The notes under the pieces: generated by a model
Database searches by the model: none
What the model saw: the letters and a program-made list of their open reading frames with translations, nothing else
Told to the model about the DNA's origin: nothing
Position numbers and translations under genes: made by a program
Source: Acinetobacter sp. UBA3106
Lineage (GTDB): Bacteria > Pseudomonadota > Gammaproteobacteria > Pseudomonadales > Moraxellaceae
DNA length: 64,000 bases
NCBI RefSeq assembly: GCF_002365595.1
Contig: NZ_DFAM01000016.1
Strand: one strand, 5' to 3'
Part shown: piece by piece, positions 10,061-64,000 of the stretch
Numbering within the stretch: position 1 is the first letter of the stretch
Layout of the letters: each line of letters begins with the position of its first letter

Positions 10061-11110
10061 ATGCATAATATTGAAAGAAGCGGATTCATTATTGCCTTAG
10101 GCATGGGGCTGCTGCACTGCCTGTTCGGTCTTTTCGTTGTTGTGTCCTCTATTTGGTTGTGTATGGCGTTATGGTTTCAGGAACCGTTTAGCGGTTTTGT
10201 GACCCGAGTACTGATCGGTGTGTGGGTCGTTTTTGCCTTAACTATTCTCGGCATTTTTATTACCCAATCTGTCTTTAACCGCCAGACTGATGCGCTTATT
10301 TATTTGCTGGCTTTTCTACTGGGCTTATTTTGGTATTTTGGCCTGCCAGCCAAACAGGATCGTGACTGGAATCCGGAAGTGGCCCAAATCCTCTCTTATG
10401 AAAGAGAAGGCGACCATGTCACATTACATCATGTACGTAATTTTAACTGGCATGCAGATGGCAGTTATGATGAACGTTGGGAAACCCGTCAGTTTGATTT
10501 AAACCAGATTACCGGCGTGAATATCATCACCTCCTACTGGATGGGACCACGTATCGCGCATACCCTGGTCAGTTTTGATTTTGCCAATAGCCAACCACTG
10601 ACCTTTTCGATTGAAATTCGCAAACAAAAAAATGAAGAATTTTCAACCTATGGCGGTTTTTTTAGAAAATATGAACTCAGCCTGATCGCAGCAGATGAAA
10701 AGGATCTGATTTATACCCGCAGCAATATTCGTGGTGAGCATGTCTATTTTTTCCCGGTCAATATGTCAAAAACAGAAAGACGGGCTTTGTTCGAAGAATA
10801 TCTGCGTAAAGCCGATGAATTGAAACATCAGCCGAAATGGTATAACAGCTTGACCAGTAACTGTACCACGCTGGTGTTTGATATGGTGCAAGCGATATCC
10901 AAAAGACCTTTCCCTGCAGATTATCGCCTGCTGGCTTCAGGCTATTTACCCAATTATCTGTATGACCTGAACGCCATTTCACATGACTTAACCATAAAAC
11001 AGTGGTATGAGATTGCCTACATTAACCCACGTGTCAGCAAGCTAAAGAATATTTCCAGTACCCAATATTCAGACTTGATTCGCCAAGGTATACCTAAACC
11101 AGCACCATAA
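10061..11110 (+). CDS. DUF4105-type membrane protein (Lnb N-terminal-domain family)
   Basis: N-terminal TM helices, then FSIEIRKQKNEEFS...YELSLIAADEKDLIYTRSN...WYNSLTSNCTT, which is characteristic of the DUF4105 family. Confidence 0.6.
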   Translation: MHNIERSGFIIALGMGLLHCLFGLFVVVSSIWLCMALWFQEPFSGFVTRVLIGVWVVFALTILGIFITQSVFNRQTDALIYLLAFLLGLFWYFGLPAKQDRDWNPEVAQILSYEREGDHVTLHHVRNFNWHADGSYDERWETRQFDLNQITGVNIITSYWMGPRIAHTLVSFDFANSQPLTFSIEIRKQKNEEFSTYGGFFRKYELSLIAADEKDLIYTRSNIRGEHVYFFPVNMSKTERRALFEEYLRKADELKHQPKWYNSLTSNCTTLVFDMVQAISKRPFPADYRLLASGYLPNYLYDLNAISHDLTIKQWYEIAYINPRVSKLKNISSTQYSDLIRQGIPKPAP

Positions 11111-11224
11111 AAATGACCATAATTAAAAATGTAAAAATATATAAAACATGGATTTATCCCTAGTTAAATCAGTATTTTTTTGTTTATATAGAACACAGCT
11201 TAAATCAAGAATGAGAATTCCAAT

Positions 11225-11686
11225 ATGTTAAAAAAACTATTTGCCGTTGGCATACTGGGCGCTGCGATTGCTTTTAGCGGTTGTGAAACCACTCCAAGCG
11301 CCTCTGCTACCATTGAAACTGCAAATTTAGTGCAACTGCAAAACCGTAGCTGGATTGCAACCCATATTGGCAATACTGAAATCAAAACAGCACCGACTGC
11401 ACACAATATTCCAAGTTTACAATTTGATGCGGCAACCAAACGGGTTAGCGGTGCTGATGGCTGTAACCGTATTATGGGCAGCTACGAAGCAGGTCGAGAT
11501 ACGCTCCTGCTCAGTCAAATGGCGGGAACCAAAATGGACTGTCTAGATCAGAACAATGTAGCGCCTCAATTTAATGAAGCCTTGGCTAAAGTCGCCAACT
11601 ATCAGGTGTTTGGCAAGACCCTCAAATTGCTGGATCGTCATGGCAATGTGGTACTGCAATTCATCAGCCCGGTACAACCACGATAA
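11225..11686 (+). CDS. META-domain (HslJ-like) lipoprotein
   Basis: Lipobox AFSGC. GADGCNRIMGSYE...KMDC pattern of META/HslJ domains. Confidence 0.65.
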   Translation: MLKKLFAVGILGAAIAFSGCETTPSASATIETANLVQLQNRSWIATHIGNTEIKTAPTAHNIPSLQFDAATKRVSGADGCNRIMGSYEAGRDTLLLSQMAGTKMDCLDQNNVAPQFNEALAKVANYQVFGKTLKLLDRHGNVVLQFISPVQPR

Positions 11687-11800: not shown

Positions 11801-12325
11801 ATGCAACAAGCTTTATTGGGTGGTGGATGCTTCTGGTGTGTCGAAGCCATATTCTTACAGCTTAAAGGTGTGGAAAAAGTGGTCAGTGGCTATGCTGGCG
11901 GTCACACTGTAAACCCGAGCTATGAGGATATTTGCAGTGGTGATACCAACCATGCGGAAGTCATTCTGATTGATTATGATGAAACACAAATCAGCTTTGC
12001 TCAGCTTTTGGATGTATTTTTTACTACCCATGATCCAACTACTTTAAACCGTCAAGGCAATGACGTTGGTACGCAATATCGGTCAGTGGTTTATTATCTG
12101 AATGATGAACAGCAGCAGCAGGCTCAGCAAGCCATTGATGCCCTGAAAGCGGAAGGTTTAAATATTGTGACTGAACTGAGTCCTGCACCCCGGTTCTACC
12201 CTGCCGAAGAATATCACCAGAATTTCTTTGCCCGAAATCCTGCACAAGGCTACTGTAACTTTGCCATTCCACCGAAACTGATGAAATTACGCAGCAAGTT
12301 TCAGGACTTGCTGAAGTCGGAATAG
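11801..12325 (+). CDS. msrA: Peptide methionine (S)-sulfoxide reductase
   Basis: GGGCFWC active site, HAEV and [16 protein letters not shown] motifs. Confidence 0.95.
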
Positions 12326-12349
12326 TCTAGTCCTGCCAATATTAGACAT

Positions 12350-12380
12350 AAAAAAAGCGACCATTCAGGTCGCTTTTTTT
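12350..12380. terminator. Bidirectional terminator (msrA / exbD)
   Basis: aaaaaaagcgacc-attca-ggtcgcttttttt. Confidence 0.85.
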
Positions 12381-12391
12381 ATAGCATCAGA

Positions 12392-12796
12392 TTAGTTATC
12401 GGTCGCAAAAGCAATATCACTGAGCCCGGCTTCGCTCGCACGGGACATCACTTGTGCAACAGCATCATAACGTGATTCTTTATCAGCTTTCAGCACAATG
12501 GTTGGCTGACGCTGTTCCTGACCAGCTTCGTTAAATTTTGTCTGTAATTCATCAAGCGTAAGCACCTTGCCATTCCAGGCAACATCTCCACTTGCATTAA
12601 TACTGATAGTCACATTTTTAGGTGGCAAATCAATAATATCTGCCGTTGTTTTTGGCAAGGTTAATGGAATTGATGGGTTAGCAACGGTTGCTGTCACCAA
12701 AAAGATGATCATCAATACCAACATAATATCGATCAGTGGAATGAGGTTCATCTCATTCATACCTACATCGTTGTCTTCGCCCAATTGAAAGCCCAT
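12392..12796 (-). CDS. exbD: Biopolymer transport protein ExbD
   Basis: NLIPLIDIMLVLMIIFLV TM segment plus an ExbD/TolR periplasmic domain. Its start overlaps the exbB stop (TAATG). Confidence 0.9.
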   Translation of the reverse strand: MGFQLGEDNDVGMNEMNLIPLIDIMLVLMIIFLVTATVANPSIPLTLPKTTADIIDLPPKNVTISINASGDVAWNGKVLTLDELQTKFNEAGQEQRQPTIVLKADKESRYDAVAQVMSRASEAGLSDIAFATDN

Positions 12797-13416
12797 TAAG
12801 CTTGACCTCCAACTAAATTGTTTGCTGTTTCTTTGGTCGCAACTTGAGCTGCACTGTCCTGTTGCAACATGGTGTCAATTAACAGACTGTGCGCCTGGTC
12901 TTGTAGCTCATGCGCCAGACCACGGTTAACGCGGGTACAAATATTATAGGCCAGCACTGCAGGAATCGCCACAGCCAAACCCAGACCGGTCATAATCAAG
13001 GCTTCACCTACCGGTGTCGCCACTTGGGCCAAACCTGCCTGACCACTTTTACCAACCGCAACCAGTGCGTGGAAAATACCCCAAACCGTACCAAACAAAC
13101 CTACAAACGGTGCCAGTGAAGCAATGGTACCTAACACTGCTACACCTTTTTCAGCATTGGCTTTTTCAGCAGAAATCTGACGCAATAACGCCTGTTCTAC
13201 CACAGCTTTACGTTGTTCAAAATTCAAAGCTGAAAATTTTGCTTTTAACTTGCTTAATGCTTGAGAGAGTTGAGCATAAGCTTGTTGCTTCAGTTGGCGA
13301 GTCCCCATTACACGTAAGACGAAGATGGTCCATGTCGCAATCGACATTGCCAATAACACGAAATACAGTGTTTTACTCACTGCATCAGCATGTTGCCAAT
13401 AAACTGAAAAGTTCAT
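12796..13416 (-). CDS. exbB: MotA/TolQ/ExbB proton-channel protein
   Basis: 206 aa, 3 TM, with the LGLFGTVWGI...GEALIMTGLGLAVAIPAV signature. Confidence 0.9.
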   Translation of the reverse strand: MNFSVYWQHADAVSKTLYFVLLAMSIATWTIFVLRVMGTRQLKQQAYAQLSQALSKLKAKFSALNFEQRKAVVEQALLRQISAEKANAEKGVAVLGTIASLAPFVGLFGTVWGIFHALVAVGKSGQAGLAQVATPVGEALIMTGLGLAVAIPAVLAYNICTRVNRGLAHELQDQAHSLLIDTMLQQDSAAQVATKETANNLVGGQA

Positions 13417-55577: not shown

Positions 55578-56060
55578 ATGATCGACTCAGAAGGTTTCCG
55601 ACCGAATGTCGGGATCATTTTGGCAAACGACATTGGACAAGTTTTATGGGCAAAACGCATTGGACACAATGCTTGGCAATTTCCACAAGGAGGGATCCAG
55701 TATGGAGAATCCCCCGAACAGGCACTTTACCGTGAGCTGAGAGAAGAAGTTGGTTTATTGCCCGAACATGTTCAAATTGTAGCGCAAACAAAAGGTTGGC
55801 TGCGTTATCGTTTGCCGCAACGGTATATACGCTCGGATTCAGACCCGGTGTGTATTGGTCAAAAACAGAAGTGGTTTTTACTGAAGCTGACAGCACCAGC
55901 AAAAAATATTCAGCTGGATTTGTCTGACCCACCTGAGTTTGACCAGTGGCAATGGGTAAGTTATTGGTACCCATTAGGCCAGGTCGTGAATTTTAAACGC
56001 GATGTATACCGAAAGGCGATGGTAGAACTGTGTCATCAGTTACCTTCCATCCAGGTATAA
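55578..56060 (+). CDS. rppH: RNA pyrophosphohydrolase (Nudix)
   Basis: [15 protein letters not shown]... with Nudix box [23 protein letters not shown]. It lies upstream of ptsP, as in other Gammaproteobacteria. Confidence 0.9.
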
Positions 56061-56142
56061 AAAATTGCATGAAAAGGCAGATTTTTTAGTAGCAAGTTGT
56101 TATAAATAAAAACAGTTTTAAACTTATTGTGGAGCAGATTTT

Positions 56143-58440
56143 ATGTCGAATATGCAACTGGACACCTTAAGACGCATTGTGCAGGAAATCAATGCGTCCA
56201 CCAGTTTGCATGAATCACTCGACATCATGGTCAATCAGGTTGCTGAAGCCATGCATGTAGATGTCTGCTCCATTTACCTGCTTGATGAACGTAACCAGCG
56301 TTATCTGCTCATGGCGTCTAAAGGATTAAATCCTGAAGCTGTCGGGCACGTTTCTTTACATACTAGTGAAGGTCTGGTCGGACTGGTAGGTCAACGCGAA
56401 GAAATCGTCAATCTGGACAATGCACCGAAGCATGAACGCTTTATGTACCTGCCTGAAACCGGGGAAGAAATTTATAATTCTTTTCTTGGCGTTCCTGTCA
56501 TGTACCGCCGTAAAGTGATGGGCGTTCTGGTGGTACAAAATAAAGAATCTCAAGATTTTAGTGAAGCTGCCGAATCGTTCCTGGTCACGCTGTGTGCCCA
56601 GCTTTCCGGTGTAATTGCCCATGCTCATGCGGTCGGCAATATCGATGTATTCCGCAAGCCAAGCAACCTTCCCGCTTATAAAACCTTCCAGGGTGTTTCA
56701 GGTTCAGGCGGCATTGCCTTAGGGCGTGCCGTCATTCTCTATCCGCCTGCAGATTTGGCGGCTGTACCTGACCGTGAAGCGGATGACATCAGTGAAGAAC
56801 TGGAACTGCTTGATCATGCGCTGAATGCGGTGCGTCAGGAAATTCAATCCCTTGATGAAAAAATGCAAGATGCCTTAATGGCAGAAGAACGCGCCCTATT
56901 TAGCGTGTTCTTGCGCATGCTGGATGAAAATGCTTTACCTTCTGAAATTAAAGCTGAAATCCGCGATGGTAACTGGGCACAAGGTGCAGTCAGAAATGTC
57001 ATTGATAATCACATTGCCCTGTTTGCACAAATGGAAGACGATTATCTACGCGAACGTGTTTCCGACCTGAAAGATCTCGGACGTCGCATTCTGGCATTTT
57101 TACAGGAAGCCGATGCCAGCCATCGCGAACTGACTGATGAAAGTATTCTGATTGGGGAAGAAATTTCAACGGCAGCCCTGGTTGAATTACCGGTCGATAA
57201 AATTGCTGCGATTGTCACCACCGAAGGTGCCATGAACTCGCATATGGTGATTGTGGCACGTGCGCTGGGCATTCCTACTGTGGTTGGTGTCACTGAACTG
57301 CCGATTAATACCTTGGATGATGTCGAGATGATTGTCGATGCTCATCAGGGACGTGTGTTTATTAATCCGCCTCGCCGTTTGCGTAGCCGTTATAAAGAAA
57401 TTCAGAAAGAAGAAGAACAGCTTGCTAAAGACTTAAAGCAATACGAGACCAAAGATGCGATTACGCCGGATGGAGTTGCCGTTAAACTGTTTGTGAACAC
57501 GGGCTTGATGATTGATGTGGTACGTGGGGTACAACGTGGCGCTAAAGGCGTAGGTTTATATCGTTCTGAAATTCCGTTTATGCTACGTGACCGCTTCCCC
57601 GGCGAAGAAGAACAGCGTGCCATTTACCGCCAGCAGCTCAGTCACTTTGCCAATAAACCTGTGGTGATGCGGACTCTCGACATTGGTGCAGATAAGGATT
57701 TACCTTATTTCTCCATTGAAGAAGAAAACTCGGCGCTGGGCTGGCGCGGCATCCGTTTTACTTTAGATCATCCTGAAATTTTTTCTGCACAAATTCGTGC
57801 CATGCTCAAAGCCAGTATTGGTCTGAATAACTTGCACATTTTACTGCCAATGATCACCAGTGTCAGTGAAGTAGAAGAAGCTTTATATCTACTGGATCGA
57901 GACTGGGCCGCAGTTCAGGAAGAAGAACAAGTTAAAATTACCAAGCCAAAAATCGGCATTATGGTTGAAGTACCGAGTGTGCTGTTACAGATTGAAGAGT
58001 TTTCTGAGCTGGTGGATTTCTTCTCGGTCGGTTCCAATGACTTGACCCAGTATTTACTGGCAGTCGACCGTAATAATCCTCGAGTTGCCAATGTGTATTC
58101 GCATTTCCATCCTGCGGTTTTACGCGCCTTGACCCGTCTGGTTCAGGAATGTCATAAATATGATAAACCGATTAGTATTTGTGGAGAAATGGCTGGCGAC
58201 CCATTGGCGGCTGTACTGCTGATGGCGATGGGCTTTAATACCCTGTCGATGAGTTCTAGCAATATTTTGCGGGTGCGTAAAGCGATTTGTCATGTTCCAA
58301 TGACCGATGCGCAGGAACAGCTGGAACGTGTATTAAAAATGAGTAATCCACTGATGGTGAAAAGCTGGATGGAGTATTACTTCAAGACCCATGGCCTGGG
58401 GGATATGGTGAAATCTGCAACCCGTATTGTAGGCGCTTAA
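56143..58440 (+). CDS. ptsP: Phosphoenolpyruvate-protein phosphotransferase PtsP (EI-Ntr) with an N-terminal GAF domain
   Basis: 765 aa. It has a GAF domain, the phospho-His region TTEGAMNSHMVIVARALGIP, and the C-terminal PEP-utilising domain (FFSVGSNDLTQY). Confidence 0.9.
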   Translation: MSNMQLDTLRRIVQEINASTSLHESLDIMVNQVAEAMHVDVCSIYLLDERNQRYLLMASKGLNPEAVGHVSLHTSEGLVGLVGQREEIVNLDNAPKHERFMYLPETGEEIYNSFLGVPVMYRRKVMGVLVVQNKESQDFSEAAESFLVTLCAQLSGVIAHAHAVGNIDVFRKPSNLPAYKTFQGVSGSGGIALGRAVILYPPADLAAVPDREADDISEELELLDHALNAVRQEIQSLDEKMQDALMAEERALFSVFLRMLDENALPSEIKAEIRDGNWAQGAVRNVIDNHIALFAQMEDDYLRERVSDLKDLGRRILAFLQEADASHRELTDESILIGEEISTAALVELPVDKIAAIVTTEGAMNSHMVIVARALGIPTVVGVTELPINTLDDVEMIVDAHQGRVFINPPRRLRSRYKEIQKEEEQLAKDLKQYETKDAITPDGVAVKLFVNTGLMIDVVRGVQRGAKGVGLYRSEIPFMLRDRFPGEEEQRAIYRQQLSHFANKPVVMRTLDIGADKDLPYFSIEEENSALGWRGIRFTLDHPEIFSAQIRAMLKASIGLNNLHILLPMITSVSEVEEALYLLDRDWAAVQEEEQVKITKPKIGIMVEVPSVLLQIEEFSELVDFFSVGSNDLTQYLLAVDRNNPRVANVYSHFHPAVLRALTRLVQECHKYDKPISICGEMAGDPLAAVLLMAMGFNTLSMSSSNILRVRKAICHVPMTDAQEQLERVLKMSNPLMVKSWMEYYFKTHGLGDMVKSATRIVGA

Positions 58441-58452
58441 TTCTATTCAGAT

Positions 58453-58647
58453 CTAAGAAAATACAGTGAAATAAAAAGAGAGATAGTCATTTGAGTATCT
58501 CCCTTTTTTGTGCTTATCATAGCCACGTTTTGCATTTTTCTTGCGGTCCACAAAGACTTGGCTTTTGTTGACCTCATGCATGTGTTTTGCCACAAAGTTG
58601 TGAACCACAACCTCTGGCAATCCTTTTTTCTTTGCCATTTTACTCAC
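58453..58647 (-). CDS. arfA: Candidate alternative ribosome-rescue factor ArfA
   Basis: 64 codons. The basic core VFVDRKKNAKRGYDKHKKG resembles the ArfA signature (E. coli [23 protein letters not shown]). It has a hydrophobic tail, and a terminator hairpin lies inside the ORF before the stop. Confidence 0.5.
   Translation of the reverse strand: MSKMAKKKGLPEVVVHNFVAKHMHEVNKSQVFVDRKKNAKRGYDKHKKGRYSNDYLSFYFTVFS
58473..58508. terminator. Bidirectional terminator hairpin located inside the 3' end of the arfA-like ORF
   Basis: A 13-bp stem pairs 58473-58485 with 58496-58508. The single A.C mismatch on the plus strand becomes G.U in the minus-strand RNA. Minus-strand RNA reads GGGAGAUAC..UAUCUCUCUUUUU. 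On the plus strand it follows ptsP. Confidence 0.7.
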
Positions 58648-58801
58648 CTGTTTTCATTCACTATCCAGATTGGACAGTAAGCTGATATTACGCTTTTTTG
58701 CACAGAATTCAAGCGGTTTTTACCGTGCGATACAGTTTATATAAAAAATAATAATTTCAAATACTTAATCTATTATTCTTAGTCTTTAGATCAACCAGTT
58801 C

Positions 58802-59200
58802 TTACAATGTATGCATATTGAAAAAATGCATGGCCAAATAGCAGAGCAAGAGCAACCAGATTAAAATGATCACGCCTGCCGCCCAGCGATTGACAGGCCG
58901 TTCCGCCAATAGCGAGGCACGAATTCTGCAATCGTCTATAATTTCTTTTGGCGTAAGCTTAATCACCAATAGCAGCCCCAAGGGCACAATAATAAGATCA
59001 TCCAGATAGCCCAGCACTGGAATAAAATCGGGAATCAGATCAATCGGTGATAGCGCATATGCCGCAATCATCAGTGCCAGTAGTTTGATCCAGACAGGTG
59101 TTCGCTCATGTTTAGCTACCAGCCAAACGACCACAATCTCTTTTTTAAGTGCTTTGGCCCATTGTTTAATTTGTTGATACATACAGGTAGTGATCATCAA
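58802..59200 (-). CDS. DUF1232 (YkvA-like) membrane protein
   Basis: AAYALSPIDLIPDFIPVLGYLDDLIIVP is the DUF1232 signature. Confidence 0.7.
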   Translation of the reverse strand: MMITTCMYQQIKQWAKALKKEIVVVWLVAKHERTPVWIKLLALMIAAYALSPIDLIPDFIPVLGYLDDLIIVPLGLLLVIKLTPKEIIDDCRIRASLLAERPVNRWAAGVIILIWLLLLCYLAMHFFNMHTL

Positions 59201-59424
59201 AAATTTCTAAAACATATTAAATAAATTTTCTTAAATGAATATAAATTTTCCAGTTTCAAGCTTATGTTCGTGTAAGTAGCTGAAGCTCTACTTTCCTTGA
59301 TCATCACAATAAAAAATAAATTTATGAAAGGGTTTTTCTCATTTCAAAAATTCACAAAATATATTTTAAGTACTCAAGTGAGAGACTTTTAATTAATATT
59401 TTCATCCCCTGCCCTCATCCCACG

Positions 59425-59459
59425 CCTTCTCCCTGAGCCATAGATGGCGCAAGAGAAGG
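59425..59459. repeat. GC-rich imperfect palindrome downstream of the acyl-CoA dehydrogenase gene
   Basis: ccttctc-(21 nt containing gccat..atggc)-gagaagg. It is a different sequence family from the CTCCCTTTTT units and is a likely terminator or REP. Confidence 0.5.
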
Positions 59460-59477
59460 ACTTTTATCATGACAATA

Positions 59478-61157
59478 TCAGTTAACGTGAGCTAAAACCC
59501 GCTCTAGCAATCTTTCCACATCTACCTGCTTCGCTTCAATCATACCGACCACTCGGCCATGAAATTCGCTATAACGCGTTTGAATAAAAGCATCGGCCAC
59601 GTAATCCGGGGCATAACGTTTCAACAACACTGCTTGCGCTAAAATCACCAGACGACTGACCAGACTGCGCCCCATAAACTGCAGTTCTTCAGGCGATTTT
59701 TGGAATAGTTTAAACAGGTTTTGTAATTCATTTTTCAGCGTTTCATCTTGCATCACAGTCGATGCCAAATCTTTAAACAGCACTTCAATGGATTCAGGTT
59801 CTCGTGCAATTGCACGCAGTACATCCAGACACATGACATTACCCGACCCTTCCCAAATGGTATTCACCGGAGCTTCTTTGAATATGCGTGCCATGATACC
59901 GTTATCGACATAACCATTGCCGCCAAAGACTTCCATCATCTCACCGGTCAGCTCAACTGCACGTTTGCAAATCCAAAACTTGGAAGCAGGTGTCATGATT
60001 CTTTTCCATGCCAGAGACAGAGCATCATCCGATTCATAACAATGTGCCAGATGGAAACTGAGTTGCATCGCAGCTTCTGTTTCCAAAGCTAAATCTGCCA
60101 ACACAGCACGCATCAAAGGCTGTTCGGCCAAGTGTTTTCCAAAAGCCTTACGCTGACGAGTATAGGCAATACATTGCACTAGAGCCTGACGCAGCATCGC
60201 GCTACTGCCGACCGAACAGGTTAAGCGGGTGTAGTTCGCCATTTCAATAATGGTCGGAATGCCGCGTCCTGCTTCGCCAATCATGATGCCCCAGGCATCC
60301 TTAAATTCGACTTCGGAACTAGAGTTGCTGCGGTTACCGACTTTCTCTTTTAGACGCTGCACATGAATATTGTTTTTCGTGCCATCTTCCAGCCAGCGCG
60401 GCACAAAGAAACAGGCCAAGCCATCTTGCTCGGTTTTCGCTACCACCAAATGTGCATCACACATCGGCGCAGAAAAAAACCATTTATGTCCAGTCAGTAA
60501 ATAAGCCTTGCCACGACCTGACTCAGCGACAGGTACAGCCAGTGTCTCATTGGCACGCACATCCGAACCGCCCTGCTTTTCGGTCATGCCCATCCCGAGC
60601 CAAATCGATTTCTTCTGGGCTATTGGCAGGTCACGTTCATCGTATTCGGTAGATAGCAGTTTCTCGCCTATTTTTGCCCATAGTTCAGGTTCACGCTGAA
60701 TCAGCGGAATACTGCCAAGCGTCATCGAAGTCGGGCATAAACTGCCAGATTCCACCTGTCCGCTTAAGTAAAAACGTGCTGCCCACTCCACCCATTTGGC
60801 AGATGATTCTGTATGATTAAATGGATGAGCATGGCTGTCAAATTTGCGGTTTAAAGCCATCCATTGATGCCATGCAGGATGAAATTCAATATAGTCTTTA
60901 CGGCGACCGCGCGCATCGAAGGCATGCAAAATGGGGGTGTGTTTATTGGCTAAATCGGCATATTGATAATACTCGGCTGATCCCACCACTTTCCCCATCT
61001 GCGACAAGGTGGCCTGATCCTGACTGCCGTAACGGTGCAAAATTTCTTTTAATACGGTGTCTGTTTCAAACAGGTTGTAGTCTTGCAGTTCGTCAAACTG
61101 GTTGCTGATCTGATGGGTCATCCATGTCTGATTTGATAACTGGTTCGATGTATTCAT
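59478..61157 (-). CDS. AidB-like acyl-CoA dehydrogenase
   Basis: 559 aa. The N-terminal extension plus ACAD domains (GMTEKQGGSDVR, WFFSAP, and the C-terminal helical domain) are as in AidB. Confidence 0.85.
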   Translation of the reverse strand: MNTSNQLSNQTWMTHQISNQFDELQDYNLFETDTVLKEILHRYGSQDQATLSQMGKVVGSAEYYQYADLANKHTPILHAFDARGRRKDYIEFHPAWHQWMALNRKFDSHAHPFNHTESSAKWVEWAARFYLSGQVESGSLCPTSMTLGSIPLIQREPELWAKIGEKLLSTEYDERDLPIAQKKSIWLGMGMTEKQGGSDVRANETLAVPVAESGRGKAYLLTGHKWFFSAPMCDAHLVVAKTEQDGLACFFVPRWLEDGTKNNIHVQRLKEKVGNRSNSSSEVEFKDAWGIMIGEAGRGIPTIIEMANYTRLTCSVGSSAMLRQALVQCIAYTRQRKAFGKHLAEQPLMRAVLADLALETEAAMQLSFHLAHCYESDDALSLAWKRIMTPASKFWICKRAVELTGEMMEVFGGNGYVDNGIMARIFKEAPVNTIWEGSGNVMCLDVLRAIAREPESIEVLFKDLASTVMQDETLKNELQNLFKLFQKSPEELQFMGRSLVSRLVILAQAVLLKRYAPDYVADAFIQTRYSEFHGRVVGMIEAKQVDVERLLERVLAHVN

Positions 61158-61236
61158 CGTCTATATTTCCTGCTTGTTGTTCTGGGCTTTTCATTCCAGT
61201 ATAGAGAAAAAATAGCCACAGCATGTTCGGCTTTGT

Positions 61237-61887
61237 TTGATCAAGAGTTTTATGAAAAATCCACAGATTCAAGTACGGCGTAAGCCGCGTCAGTCCAGAG
61301 CCAAGCTGACTCAGGAAGCCTTGCAGGACAGTTTTGTTCGGCTTTTGCATGAGCGTGCTGCACATGACATTACCATTCGCGAGATTACCGATTTGGCCGG
61401 TGTAGGCTTGGGCACGTTCTATGAATATTTTTCCAAGAAAGAAGATTTGGTTGCGCTGACCATTCACCGACATGTGAAAAACAATGCTGAGGACTTAAAA
61501 ACTTATGCACAAAGCCTGATCAAGTTATCCACAGATATGGCTCTGGATGATTATTTAAGACAGGTGATTCATTTTCAGCTTGAGCAGATTCAAGCACAGC
61601 AGTTTCTATGGGCACAGACCTTTTTGCTGGAACGTCAAATTTCCAATATTGAGAGTTACCGTAAGAGTTACAAAATGATGATGCAAATGTGGCAAAACAT
61701 TCTTGCACCTTTTATTCAGGATGCTGGACAGCTCAAACGGATGAGTTTAAATGTGCAACGGGTCTGCTATGGCTTTGTGTCGCAGACGTTGTTGATGGAG
61801 CCTGAGTTTGTCGAGTGGGATGAGTTGGAGAACGATATTATTCAAACTTCAATTAACTTAATTTTTAATAAAAATGTTTTTTTTTGA
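61237..61887 (+). CDS. TetR-family transcriptional regulator
   Basis: HTH is ITIREITDLAGVGLGTFYEYF. It is divergent from the acyl-CoA dehydrogenase gene. Confidence 0.8.
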   Translation: MIKSFMKNPQIQVRRKPRQSRAKLTQEALQDSFVRLLHERAAHDITIREITDLAGVGLGTFYEYFSKKEDLVALTIHRHVKNNAEDLKTYAQSLIKLSTDMALDDYLRQVIHFQLEQIQAQQFLWAQTFLLERQISNIESYRKSYKMMMQMWQNILAPFIQDAGQLKRMSLNVQRVCYGFVSQTLLMEPEFVEWDELENDIIQTSINLIFNKNVFF

Positions 61888-62107
61888 AGTTAAAGATCCA
61901 TTTTTGGTTGGCAAAACATATCAAAGCCGCTCATAAAAAAAGCCGACTTGTTTCCAACCTGGATTTTTCGCATTTTTGTGTTGTGGTAATAATTTTAAAT
62001 ATTTGATTTTTAAATTAATGTACACGTGCAGTTTGTATAAAGACCATTATATTAAATAAAGCATCAAAATTAATCATGAAATTTTCAAGAAAAAATCATA
62101 AATATTT

Positions 62108-62135
62108 TTGACAAACAAAAAAAATCATGTATTAT
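62108..62135 (+). promoter_or_regulatory. Near-consensus sigma-70 promoter in front of the low-GC gene cluster
   Basis: TTGACA (62108-62113), a 16-nt spacer, then TATTAT (62130-62135), 41 nt upstream of the ATG at 62177. Confidence 0.5.
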
Positions 62136-62176
62136 TCCAATTATTAAATTTGTGATTTTTTCTGGAAAAAAACATT

Positions 62177-63109
62177 ATGTTATTAAGTTGTTTTGAATTA
62201 GATAATAAAATTATAAGCTTAGAGTCTTATTTATCGAATATATTTGAGGCTTCATATCTTCATCAGATTATTACGGAAAATTATTCAGATGATTATCTAA
62301 AAGGGAGCACAGATAAACTATTTGGTTTACCTCCAGAATCCTCTGAAATTATACATCAACCTAGTTTGTACAGTCTTGATGAAGAACTACAAAAAGTTGC
62401 GAAGCAGACTTTTATGAATACATTTATTTGTAATGCATGTCTAACTCTATATGAATATGCGGTAAATGGTATTCCGACTTCTGAACATTGGAGTGATATT
62501 GTTGAAGATGTAAATATCTATCTTCAACATATTCATAGCGACTTTTCACCTATTTCTCCTAATACACGCGTAATTGTAGATCTCGCACTTTTAAGATTTG
62601 GAATAGATGGTGAACAGGATTCAAATCATTTTATTTGTGATTTGGATAAATTCAAAGTTATTGCACTCATGGCTGATCTAGATGAGCGAACTGTAAAAAA
62701 TGCTCATTCACAAGGTTTTTTTAATGGTGATTCAGGAGATTTTGATTTTAATGCCATTAAATTATGGTTAAGCACAAAACGAGGTTTTATACCTACCAAA
62801 GGCTTAATCAAAAAGAATAGTCAATCCTTAAATGAAGTGAAAACAGCCCCAGAATTTGGTTACTTTTTAAAAGAAAAGAGAGAAAGTTTAGGGGCTTTAT
62901 TCGATCTGAAAGTATTTCAAACTAAACACTATCTTTTTGATAAAAAAACAGTTGTTGAATTAGAAAATGGTTTTTTTGATTTGCCATTAAACACAGTATC
63001 TATTCTTGCAAATGCTTATTACATAGATGAAAACGAATTTTTAAATTGTGTTATGAGAGTGTTTTTTTCTTCGGAGTTAGAAAAAATTAGAGGAATGAAA
63101 GATGCATAG
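62177..63109 (+). CDS. Hypothetical protein (310 aa) with an unknown N-terminal domain and a C-terminal XRE-like helix-turn-helix
   Basis: Very AT-rich ORF. The C-terminal segment FGYFLKEKRESLG...KKTVVELENG...LPLNTVSILANAYYIDENEF has the HTH_XRE pattern. Its stop overlaps the next ORF. Confidence 0.6.
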   Translation: MLLSCFELDNKIISLESYLSNIFEASYLHQIITENYSDDYLKGSTDKLFGLPPESSEIIHQPSLYSLDEELQKVAKQTFMNTFICNACLTLYEYAVNGIPTSEHWSDIVEDVNIYLQHIHSDFSPISPNTRVIVDLALLRFGIDGEQDSNHFICDLDKFKVIALMADLDERTVKNAHSQGFFNGDSGDFDFNAIKLWLSTKRGFIPTKGLIKKNSQSLNEVKTAPEFGYFLKEKRESLGALFDLKVFQTKHYLFDKKTVVELENGFFDLPLNTVSILANAYYIDENEFLNCVMRVFFSSELEKIRGMKDA

Positions 63110-63392
63110 TTTCAATACAACTCGCCATAGTAATAAGCGGATGAAGCAACGCGGCATTACTAAAGATATGATTGATTTTACTATTCTTTTTGGTGAAATA
63201 GATGGTGATAAATATTTTACAAATCAAAAGAATATAAAGGATGAAATATCAATGATTGATCTGAAAATTATGCAATTACGGAAATTAAGGAAGACAGCAT
63301 TAAAAGTTTTAGACAAAGGTGGGGTAACTGTTGTTGCTGATAATGGAAATATTATTTCTACTTATAATTTCAATAGTTATTTAAGTTACTAA
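63102..63392 (+). CDS. DUF4258-like small protein (toxin-type fold)
   Basis: 96 aa. TTRHSNKRMKQRGITKDMIDFTI... and ...VTVVADNGNIISTY resemble DUF4258 (H..R..eRgI ... ivTvy). There is an 8-nt overlap, ATGCATAG, with the upstream ORF. Confidence 0.55.
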   Translation: MHSFNTTRHSNKRMKQRGITKDMIDFTILFGEIDGDKYFTNQKNIKDEISMIDLKIMQLRKLRKTALKVLDKGGVTVVADNGNIISTYNFNSYLSY

Positions 63393-63433
63393 CTAAAGCT
63401 AAATCCATTCAATAAATTATTTACGAGGAATAT

Positions 63434-64000
63434 ATGGGTACTAAATCTTACTCAGAGATGGCTTCTGCCTTAAAAAAAGTTGTTATAAAATCTGATACAA
63501 CATTGGAACAGTTAGAATCTTTGAGAATTGCGAAAGATGGAGCTGTAGAAAGCTATTACATCCCGTTTGACTATCTTACACCGAACGCCAAAGTTGTTTT
63601 AGTTGGAATAACACCTGGTAAAACGCAATTATTGAATGCTCTTATTTCAGTAGAAAATTCTATTAAAAAAGGGCTTTCCACTAATGAAATTTTAAAAAAT
63701 GCTAAAGTAGAAGGAGCTTTTAGCGGAACATTAAGAAAAAACCTAGTGCAATTATTAGATTATATTGGTCTAGATAAAAAACTTGGTATTAAAAGTACAG
63801 ATTCTTTATTTAATACAAATGCACATTTAGTTCATACAACTTCTGTTTTACGTCATCCAGTTTTTGTAGATGGGCAAGATTATAGTGGTTCTACCCCTAA
63901 TATGATAAAACATCCCCTTATGGTCGATTTAATTGATAAGTATTTAAAAGAAGAAATTCGTCAATTACCTAATGCATTATATATTCCGCTAGGTCCAAAA
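63434..64000 (+). CDS. Uracil-DNA-glycosylase-superfamily-like protein, N-terminal 189 codons (3' end outside the window)
   Basis: Not in the ORF track because there is no stop before the window edge. I translated it by hand as MGTKSYSEM...VVLVGITPGKTQ...AFSGTLRKNLVQLLDYIGL...HTTSVLRHP...YIPLGPK. GAGGAA SD at 63425-63430. Confidence 0.55.
   Translation, partial: MGTKSYSEMASALKKVVIKSDTTLEQLESLRIAKDGAVESYYIPFDYLTPNAKVVLVGITPGKTQLLNALISVENSIKKGLSTNEILKNAKVEGAFSGTLRKNLVQLLDYIGLDKKLGIKSTDSLFNTNAHLVHTTSVLRHPVFVDGQDYSGSTPNMIKHPLMVDLIDKYLKEEIRQLPNALYIPLGPK

Follow-up and report, generated by a model that had tools for sequence, protein, structure and literature searches.

A diverged uracil-DNA-glycosylase-fold protein from a low-GC island of Acinetobacter, probably an undescribed relative of the Brig defence glycosylases

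A gene with hallmarks of the uracil-DNA glycosylase (UDG) superfamily runs off the end of a 64,000-nucleotide stretch of DNA from Acinetobacter sp. UBA3106 (contig NZ_DFAM01000016.1; the whole stretch is called the window below). What does this truncated gene encode, and what would a glycosylase do in AT-rich DNA behind two genes that resemble a toxin-antitoxin (TA) pair? A preliminary description of the window had suggested a variation on Brig1-type anti-phage defence or an enzyme of different specificity; Brig1 is an alpha-glucosyl-5-hydroxymethylcytosine DNA glycosylase whose abasic sites block phage replication (Hossain et al. 2024; PMC11078745). We find that the gene encodes a diverged UDG-fold protein from a family with a dedicated partner, and that the enzyme is probably an undescribed relative of the Brig defence glycosylases. 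More specifically, we regard it as about evenly balanced whether this is a monofunctional DNA glycosylase of the Brig kind that removes a modified pyrimidine from phage DNA and is encoded by the last gene of a three-gene operon on an island of ~3 kb.

The truncated gene and its protein family

The reading frame begins at an ATG preceded by a GAGGAA ribosome-binding site and translates to 189 sense codons, open to the window end; in DNA of 29-31% GC, an open frame of this length is not a product of chance. All of the motif strings quoted in the preliminary description were located by translation, namely VVLVGITPG (amino acids [aa] 54-62), AFSGTLRKNLVQLLDYIGL (aa 95-113), HTTSVLRHP (134-142), and YIPLGP (183-188). 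A search of 5.8 billion proteins with the window fragment returned 142 homologues at E <= 0.001. The 260-aa protein P0001 is 100% identical to the window fragment over its whole length and is carried by six long contigs, L001-L006. Since L003 8744-10567 is base-for-base the same as window 62177-64000, the missing 71 codons were taken from L003, and the full open reading frame (ORF) could be analyzed.

Full-length P0001 matched the Pfam UDG family (PF03167) over residues 45-222 with 26.5 bits against a cut-off of 24.3 (E = 7.8e-6); the window fragment alone, at 16.8 bits, remained under the threshold. An AlphaFold2 model of the 260-aa protein, built on an alignment of 88 diverse homologues, had a pLDDT (predicted local distance difference test) of 95.1 and a pTM (predicted template modeling score) of 0.91. 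In a Foldseek comparison of this model with the PDB, ranks 1-28 were all occupied by UDG-superfamily structures, leaving no unrelated fold among them (probability 0.87-1.00, E = 6e-4 to about 2e-2, template modeling [TM] score 0.33-0.49). These included human and Xenopus SMUG1, the family 4 enzymes of S. tokodaii and T. thermophilus, SMUG2, UdgX, and TDG, with human SMUG1 (9ggs, E = 6e-4) as the best match, and the top matches among the viral models of BFVD were likewise all UDGs. The superfamily membership suggested by the motif strings is thus borne out by the Pfam match and by both sets of structures. Sequence searches of the PDB with the fragment or with the 88-sequence profile returned no chain at E <= 10; Pfam and Foldseek are thus the basis of the fold assignment, and the family lies far from every solved family. 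Relative to other UDGs, the model is extended at its N terminus by ~45 residues, and two additional helices (about 30 residues) are inserted between motif 1 and the F-x-G motif.

The family signature reads GITPGxxQ ... FSGxxR ... (H/Q)xTS ... PLG ... HPSGANxxR. In P0001, the window part holds motif 1 (G58-I-T60-P-G62..Q65), the stacking motif (F96-S-G98..R101), and the strand L132-V-H-T-T136-S, and motif 2, H214-P-S-G-A-N219..R222, lies past the window end. Fifteen of the positions are invariant in the 88 members (Y42, P44, A52, I59, P61, G62, Q65, G98, R101, F126, P155, G187, G211, H214, and S216), P215 is invariant or nearly so, and G58, T60, F96, N219, and R222 are nearly invariant. The preliminary description had placed GITPG where MUG-type enzymes have GINPG, and hhalign agrees in pairing KVVLVGITPG with RVVFCGINPG of E. 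coli MUG (probability 17.6%, over 21 residues only). In a profile-to-sequence alignment, GLPHPSGANAER is paired with APHPSPLSAHR of E. coli UNG, whose motif-2 His is the leaving-group catalyst.

Position 60, the site of the water-activating Asp or Asn of UDG families 1 to 3, is Thr in 83 of the 88 members, Ser in four, and Ala in one. It is Thr in all 42 genes linked to the partner described below, and in 45 solo genes Thr (26) is the commonest residue, followed by Ala (9) and Ser (6). According to a by-eye alignment to the family 4 strand, Thr136 (Thr or Ser in the family) replaces the motif-3 Asn, which reads uracil N3/O4; the roles of the three UDG motifs have been described previously (PMC9796141). 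Taken together, Thr in place of Asn/Asp, a Gln five residues further on, and a His-type motif 2 form an active-site signature from which a substrate other than uracil is predicted.

The loss of the catalytic motif-1 Asn/Asp could also mean that the protein is catalytically inert and only binds DNA or a nucleotide, for example as a regulator or an inhibitor decoy, and UDG-fold proteins with noncanonical chemistry do exist, with UdgX being one of the structural matches. We consider this highly improbable, given that the family 4 and 5 enzymes Tth UDGa and DR0022 are active without Asn or Asp at the motif-1 site (PMC9796141) and that, across about 2,000 clusters, the leaving-group His214, the stacking F96, and the HPSGAN loop do not vary, a pattern that marks a conserved active site.

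When 1.84 billion representatives, clustered at 50% identity, were searched exhaustively with HMMER, the family comprised 2,031 clusters at E <= 1e-3 and 735 at E <= 1e-30. In a scan of one genome per species, relatives were present in at least 578 of 185,579 species, and the best 80 loci belonged nearly all to Alpha-, Beta-, or Gammaproteobacteria; members from Bacillota (Planococcus and Fictibacillus) were added by protein search. The taxonomic spread of the family is patchy, and source records call its members either "uracil-DNA glycosylase family protein" or "hypothetical." A phage gene family was ruled out, with only 9 relatives found in 2.9 million viral contigs, some of them prophage-region calls. 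Elsewhere in the family, at least six different domains of 110-190 aa are fused to the C terminus (P0155, P0157, P0167, P0172, P0181, and P0183; L079 425-1762), and one member carries an N-terminal GGACT/AIG2-like fusion; apart from GGACT, these fused domains have no Pfam match. A location in an integron cassette array was considered for the Vibrio homologue in L079 and rejected, as no attC-like direct repeats were found; the gene encodes a 445-aa fusion there.

The linked 310-aa gene and the toxin gene

Two genes precede the glycosylase gene in the window (Table 1), the first encoding a 310-aa protein and the second a 96-aa protein with a DUF4258 domain. We surveyed linkage by clustering the ORFs around 90 glycosylase family members from other genomes and searching them with hidden Markov models. 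In 42 of the 90 loci, a member of the 310-aa family is encoded no more than about 1.1 kb from the glycosylase gene; the DUF4258 family is equally near in 37, and partner and toxin are both present in 35. Linked loci cover Alpha-, Beta-, and Gammaproteobacteria and come from Acinetobacter, Pseudomonas, Burkholderiales, Nitrosomonadales, Methylobacter, Bradyrhizobium, Rhodopseudomonas, Roseovarius, Maricaulis, and others. The common order is partner-toxin-glycosylase, with the partner located 3' of the glycosylase in some Alphaproteobacteria. Seven loci, four Pseudomonas loci among them, have the partner and the glycosylase without the toxin, and at least six clusters (P0193, P0189, P0216, and others) represent true fusions, in which the N-terminal ~220 residues of the partner, including a putative central helix-turn-helix (HTH), are joined to the glycosylase domain.

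This linkage, the loci that lack the toxin, and the fusions identify the 310-aa protein as a partner dedicated to the glycosylase family and not merely an antitoxin; the toxin is often present as a third component but can be dispensed with. Of the TA-like pair initially proposed, both genes exist and the smaller encodes a putative DUF4258 toxin, but the role of antitoxin alone is too narrow for the larger gene. Similarity clustering does not separate the partner-linked glycosylases from the solo ones, which are interleaved (71% concordance between nearest neighbours), and both groups have the same invariant residues.

The AlphaFold2 model of the partner is all-helical (pLDDT 82), and only its last ~65 residues match PDB structures, which are XRE-type HTH domains such as those of the restriction-modification controller C.AhdI and lambda cI. 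No PDB structure matched the N-terminal ~200 aa, no Pfam domain was detected in the protein, and its relatives are all annotated as "hypothetical." A central segment (L..E.A.LA...E+.VRNA ... WL..RRGF.PT) looks like a second HTH of the excisionase type. The 96-aa protein matched PF14076 with 25.4 bits against a cut-off of 25 (E = 1.8e-5). DUF4258 proteins are BECR-fold, Ntox49/colicin-like putative RNase toxins that are usually encoded after an antitoxin (PMC11980606; bioRxiv 10.64898/2026.08.28.747851). In the linked homologues, H9, R13, Q16, and R17 are kept in 24-31 of 31 sequences, and the window protein has all four together with the likewise conserved G31.

The partner and toxin genes share an 8-nt overlap, the toxin gene stops 41 nt short of the glycosylase start, and a scan for terminator-like sites between the three genes found none. 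A promoter candidate, identified by scanning L003 (8675-8702, equivalent to the interval in Table 1), lies 42 nt upstream of the first gene. It is surrounded by AAAAAATCAT/TGATTTTTT repeats (direct repeats D1-D3 and inverted repeats I1-I5), with three copies of AAAAAATCAT and an inverted TGATTTTTT that flank and overlap it; these repeats are possible operators for the HTH protein, with chance matches also plausible in DNA this rich in AT. An rRNA-depleted phyllosphere metatranscriptome (run X24) contained contigs 100% identical to window 62484-62673 and 63449-64000, which is weak evidence for expression of the partner and glycosylase genes, as DNA carry-over is possible. From their arrangement, the three genes are predicted to form one operon, for which the RNA data consist of short contigs over two of the three. 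The sequence represented by these contigs also occurs in DNA metagenomes of soil, dairy, wastewater, manure, freshwater, and leaf-surface origin.

Table 1. Coordinates of the glycosylase gene and associated features in the 64,000-nucleotide window
Feature	Position	Strand	Basis
UDG-superfamily gene, first 189/260 codons	63434-64000	+	Translation; profile and structure matches
310-aa partner protein	62177..63109	+	AlphaFold2 model; C-terminal XRE HTH; linkage and fusions to the glycosylase
96-aa DUF4258 (BECR-fold, Ntox49/colicin-like) putative RNase toxin	63102..63392	+	Pfam PF14076
Candidate sigma-70-type promoter, TTGACA-16 nt-TATTAT	62108..62135	+	Consensus match only, 11/12
Candidate operator repeats AAAAAATCAT / TGATTTTTT	62065..62178	n/a	Repeats around the promoter
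Low-GC (29%) horizontally acquired island	61888..64000	n/a	GC contrast; same flanking genes in L001-L006

Could the locus instead be a tripartite TA or abortive-infection system, in which the UDG-fold protein is not the direct antiviral effector but senses modified or damaged (phage) DNA and frees the RNase from the HTH antitoxin, or acts as a second toxin on normal bases of host DNA when the partner is lost? Such a system would agree with three genes that overlap or are closely spaced behind one promoter, and with an antitoxin-like HTH gene followed by a BECR toxin, the order typical of DUF4258 modules. The partner-glycosylase fusions imply physical coupling, the seven loci that lack the toxin would be expected if the partner neutralizes or controls the glycosylase, and an insertion sequence (IS) has knocked out the toxin gene in one genome. 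However, an intrinsically toxic enzyme should not be tolerated on its own, and about half of the family members are solo with the same invariant residues; moreover, two-gene and fused forms exist without the toxin, which is thus not the core of the system. We therefore rate a tripartite system as distinctly unlikely.

Several variants of the locus were seen in individual genomes. The IS just mentioned, with an rve-family transposase, splits the DUF4258 gene of one Acinetobacter chromosome (L100 6374-7976) and leaves the other two genes intact, and in sister genomes the toxin gene is uninterrupted. In loci resembling integrative and conjugative elements (ICEs), a conserved 115-117-aa winged-helix-like protein precedes the UDG-like gene and replaces the 310-aa partner (L110 43-390; L112 7633-7986). 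Two solo UDG-like genes have a DUF4357 protein gene 27 bp (L109 7057-7974) or about 2.8 kb (L105 4392-5246) upstream; the two contexts are unrelated, each is beside restriction-modification genes, and the DUF4357 protein is a possible alternative partner.

The island, related neighbourhoods, and proposed function

The genomic setting bears on whether the glycosylase serves defence. The island has a GC content of 29.2%, compared with 43.2 +/- 2.1% in 2.1-kb windows over the rest of the sequence (minimum, 37.9%), which confirms the AT-rich island initially reported. In L003, the low-GC stretch extends over ~3 kb (about 8450-11400), so that the island reaches ~0.8 kb past the window end and includes the end of the glycosylase gene and a katG remnant. 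It is placed between the same flanking genes across L001-L006 and is bounded by a TetR gene and the decayed katG fragment, with ordinary metabolic genes close by. The host replicon is most likely an Acinetobacter chromosome.

The katG remnant is a 91-aa ORF on the minus strand (L003 10910-11185) derived from an internally deleted catalase-peroxidase gene. It is located some 130 nt beyond the stop codon of the glycosylase gene, shortly after the end of the window. Two segments of E. coli KatG, residues 443-482 and 685-725, are matched by this ORF, with 71% identity in the final 41 aa, so that the island either adjoins a decayed katG or has taken its place. On the other side, window 55578-61887 encodes an rppH-like NUDIX hydrolase, a GAF/PEP-utilizing ptsP-like protein, a DUF1232 protein, an AidB-like acyl-CoA dehydrogenase, and the TetR regulator, in an order that is identical in all six island-bearing contigs.

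Relatives of the glycosylase occur in more telling company. A homologue in Acinetobacter sp. BSP-28 (71% identical) has a DUF262-like gene and a type I restriction subunit gene on one side and a complete Zorya system of type I on the other, and PADLOC models matched REase_I (1e-36), ZorA (4e-254), ZorB (8e-106), and ZorC (2e-231) at this locus. In the A. calcoaceticus/baumannii complex, a homologue (67% identical) precedes zorABCD by 114 bp; what lies to its left differs among three contexts, and two of them contain two DNA methylases, GmrSD, and a ResIII/restriction enzyme. Several Acinetobacter chromosomes carry a three-gene copy (71% identical) with IS elements and large unknown genes on both sides. 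A member from Planococcus comes after two PDDEXK_4 genes, with an N6_Mtase/Methylase_S gene in the same region, and a metagenomic member is beside an MvaI/BcnI-type restriction-modification system with Vsr. Two members are in ICE-like regions with TraX, DUF1173, phosphoadenosine phosphosulfate (PAPS) reductase, a DinG-like helicase, SRAP, and a family 4-type UDG; two others are in plain metabolic regions.

Among 150 immediate neighbours from about 80 loci, about 10 matched PADLOC defence models at E <= 1e-10, an approximate count made without a matched background. The models were type I, II, and IIG restriction-modification, ZorA, DruH, MkoA, HEC-05, and PDC-S52, and Pfam searches of the immediate neighbours identified transposases and integrases as well. 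This mixed pattern is suggestive of mobile conflict genes, of which it is typical. The preliminary description had argued that the setting is not a housekeeping one, and the low-GC island, the operon with a DUF4258 toxin, and the relatives in defence islands and mobile elements all support this view.

In four Acinetobacter loci (L007 9968-18386; L102-L104 8001-16323), a solo UDG-like gene is found 114-165 bp upstream of a complete type I zorABCD operon in the same orientation, irrespective of the genes to its left; it might therefore be an accessory gene of Zorya and not a neighbour by chance. One of the ICE-like loci, L112, encodes the family 4-type UDG and the SRAP abasic-site-binding protein at 8995-9594 and 12265-12903.

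We propose excision of a modified pyrimidine because of the UDG fold, the invariant leaving-group His, which is typical of UDGs acting on pyrimidines, the stacking Phe, the invariant Gln, and the loss of the uracil-specific Asn residues. A noncanonical pyrimidine carrying a phage base modification would be flipped into a pocket made up of GITPG with Q65, F96/R101, and the H134-T-T-S strand; His214 would stabilize the leaving base, and the HPSGAN loop would plug the gap in the helix. By analogy with Brig1 and Brig3, the resulting abasic sites would block replication of the phage DNA. The 310-aa protein would act as a DNA-binding partner or controller, probably repressing the operon through its XRE HTH and working physically with the glycosylase. 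In the three-gene form, it may in addition be the antitoxin to the DUF4258 RNase, which could add addiction or an abortive-infection back-up.

Several observations weigh against this proposal. The structural matches to known UDGs are modest in both E value and TM score, and, as far as the sequence goes, catalysis is not guaranteed with Thr for the motif-1 Asn/Asp and, by the by-eye alignment, Thr/Ser for the motif-3 Asn. In roughly half of the loci the glycosylase gene is solo, and ordinary metabolic neighbourhoods surround several loci. No other defence gene lies near the island in the window itself. None of the three operon proteins is matched by NCBIfam, PADLOC, or PHROGs models; in PADLOC-DB v2, the glycosylase and the 310-aa protein had no match and the toxin only a chance-level one to PtuB (E = 0.016). 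Finally, a kinship with Brig1 is not borne out by sequence, as the family profile gave an hhalign probability of 0.16% and a BLASTP E value of 16 against Brig1, whose sequence came from a machine-read PDF in the supplement of PMC11078745 and may contain small errors; by sequence, the protein is not a member of the Brig1 family.

The ICE-like relatives, with their repair-type family 4-type UDG and SRAP genes, fit a role in mobile-element DNA maintenance equally well. In this alternative, the gene would be a mobile-element-borne repair or maintenance glycosylase that removes deaminated or oxidized bases (uracil, 5-hydroxymethyluracil, or hypoxanthine-type) from the DNA of the element or of its host, the HTH protein would be a regulator, and the DUF4258 pair would be a hitch-hiking addiction module. 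Its nearest structures (SMUG1, family 4 UDG, UdgX, and TDG) are repair enzymes, its motif-2 His is of the UNG type and invariant, the DinG-like helicase is a further neighbour in the ICE-like regions, some loci are in plain metabolic surroundings, and NCBI uses the name "uracil-DNA glycosylase family protein." We nevertheless judge this explanation unlikely: the distribution, with at least 578 of 185,579 species, is patchy; the window copy is in a low-GC island and close relatives are inside restriction and Zorya islands; the residues that read uracil or activate water (motif-3 Asn, motif-1 Asn/Asp) are replaced; and the partner gene is tightly linked or even fused, unlike in ordinary repair glycosylases.

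The defence proposal might also be extended to a single integrated system, in which the partner tethers the glycosylase to DNA and at the same time holds the toxin, and the RNase is released once the glycosylase engages modified phage DNA or the abasic sites that it makes there. We view this as decidedly improbable; if true, it would couple a direct attack on DNA to abortive infection and would constitute a new kind of glycosylase-triggered TA switch, and the UDG family behind it would be new and have a substrate class to itself.

Base-excision defence is a very recent subject, with Brig1 reported in 2024 and Brig2, the Dag enzymes, and Brig3 in 2025-26, and only a handful of families have been tested. 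The family described here is large, unnamed, and absent from the defence-system library searched (PADLOC). If active, it would supply a new base-specific glycosylase and a reagent for mapping phage DNA modification, would provide a test case for how base-excision effectors are controlled and combined with toxin modules, and, should the predicted phage phenotype exist, would extend the map of host-range barriers to Acinetobacter phages.

Comparison with known glycosylases and toxin-antitoxin modules

How does the family relate to the enzymes already known? It is a distinct and so far unnamed family within the UDG superfamily, with Brig2 and Brig3 compared by description only. Family 2 (MUG/TDG), with which the preliminary description had compared motif 1, was rejected. 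The likeness is real for motif 1, which matches that of MUG residue for residue (VVLVGITPG versus VVFCGINPG) save for Thr in place of Asn, but it does not extend to motif 2, which is the His-type HPS of UNG, SMUG, and family 4 and not the NPS of MUG, where motif 2 is NPSGLS. Thr60 replaces the Asn in 83 of the 88 members, the motif-2 His is invariant, and the hhalign match spans 21 residues.

Judging from the predicted model, the family appears closest in shape to SMUG1 (family 3), the best structural match, with which it has in common that motif 2 is of the His type and that an Asn stands five residues after the His (HPSGAN here). The SMUG1 motifs are GMNPG, which contains the catalytic Asn, and HPSPRN. 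The motif-1 Asn is Thr in our protein, which has in addition the N-terminal extension and the two-helix insertion, and the SMUG1 chains in the PDB gave no sequence or profile match. Family 4 (UDGa) was rejected on the basis of the GITPG motif, the Thr/Ser at the motif-3 Asn (by-eye alignment), and the single Cys of P0001 (C191), which leaves no four-Cys 4Fe-4S cluster; family 4 enzymes have GE(A/G)PG and an Asn-initiated motif 3 (PMC9796141), and 4ZBY contains an Fe-S cluster (PMC11078745).

Brig1, whose family was defined by its authors by PSI-BLAST (PMC11078745), resembles our protein in its UDG-superfamily fold, in being a single protein of ~260 aa, in its location in defence islands, and in the proposed mode of action, excision of a modified base. 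It differs in having GLNPG with the motif-1 Asn, in lacking an HPS motif 2, and in acting alone, whereas here there is an HTH partner and often a toxin. Brig2 is UDG-like and defends against phages with 5-(2-aminoethyl)uridine and related thymidine modifications (Getz et al. 2025; bioRxiv 10.1101/2025.10.29.685425). It has hundreds of homologues, mostly in Pseudomonadota and Bacillota, in A/T-rich, mobile-element-associated neighbourhoods (bioRxiv 10.1101/2025.10.29.685425). Set beside it by description only, our family has a UDG-like fold and a similarly broad taxonomic distribution.

Brig3 is a 5-hydroxymethylcytosine glycosylase with an accessory operon partner, BapA, a hydrolase that removes glucose, and its Glu55 reads the 5-substituent (bioRxiv 10.64898/2026.02.25.707755). 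Both systems thus combine a UDG-superfamily glycosylase, established in defence in the case of Brig3, with a dedicated partner gene in an operon, and N50-P51, E55, and N225 of Brig3 may be comparable to T60-P61, Q65, and N219 here, as far as residue numbers alone indicate. Its motif is N-P-S and not T-P-G, and BapA is an enzyme, whereas the partner here is all-helical and predicted to bind DNA. Neither the profile search nor the Foldseek search of the PDB returned the Brig3 structure. A possible overlap with the Brig2 family, whose taxonomic spread is similar, is the main caveat to novelty, as Brig2 and Brig3 were compared by description only. The Brig1-Brig3 papers describe no linked HTH partner, fusion to one, or BECR toxin for any Brig enzyme.

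The upstream half of the operon invites comparison with type II TA modules of the DUF4258 class. Both have a small toxin with an H..R..QR motif near its N terminus, an overlapping HTH gene in first position, and the order antitoxin-toxin. The upstream gene here is far larger than a usual antitoxin gene, encoding 310 aa with an extra domain, and it is tied in evolution to the glycosylase and not to the toxin.

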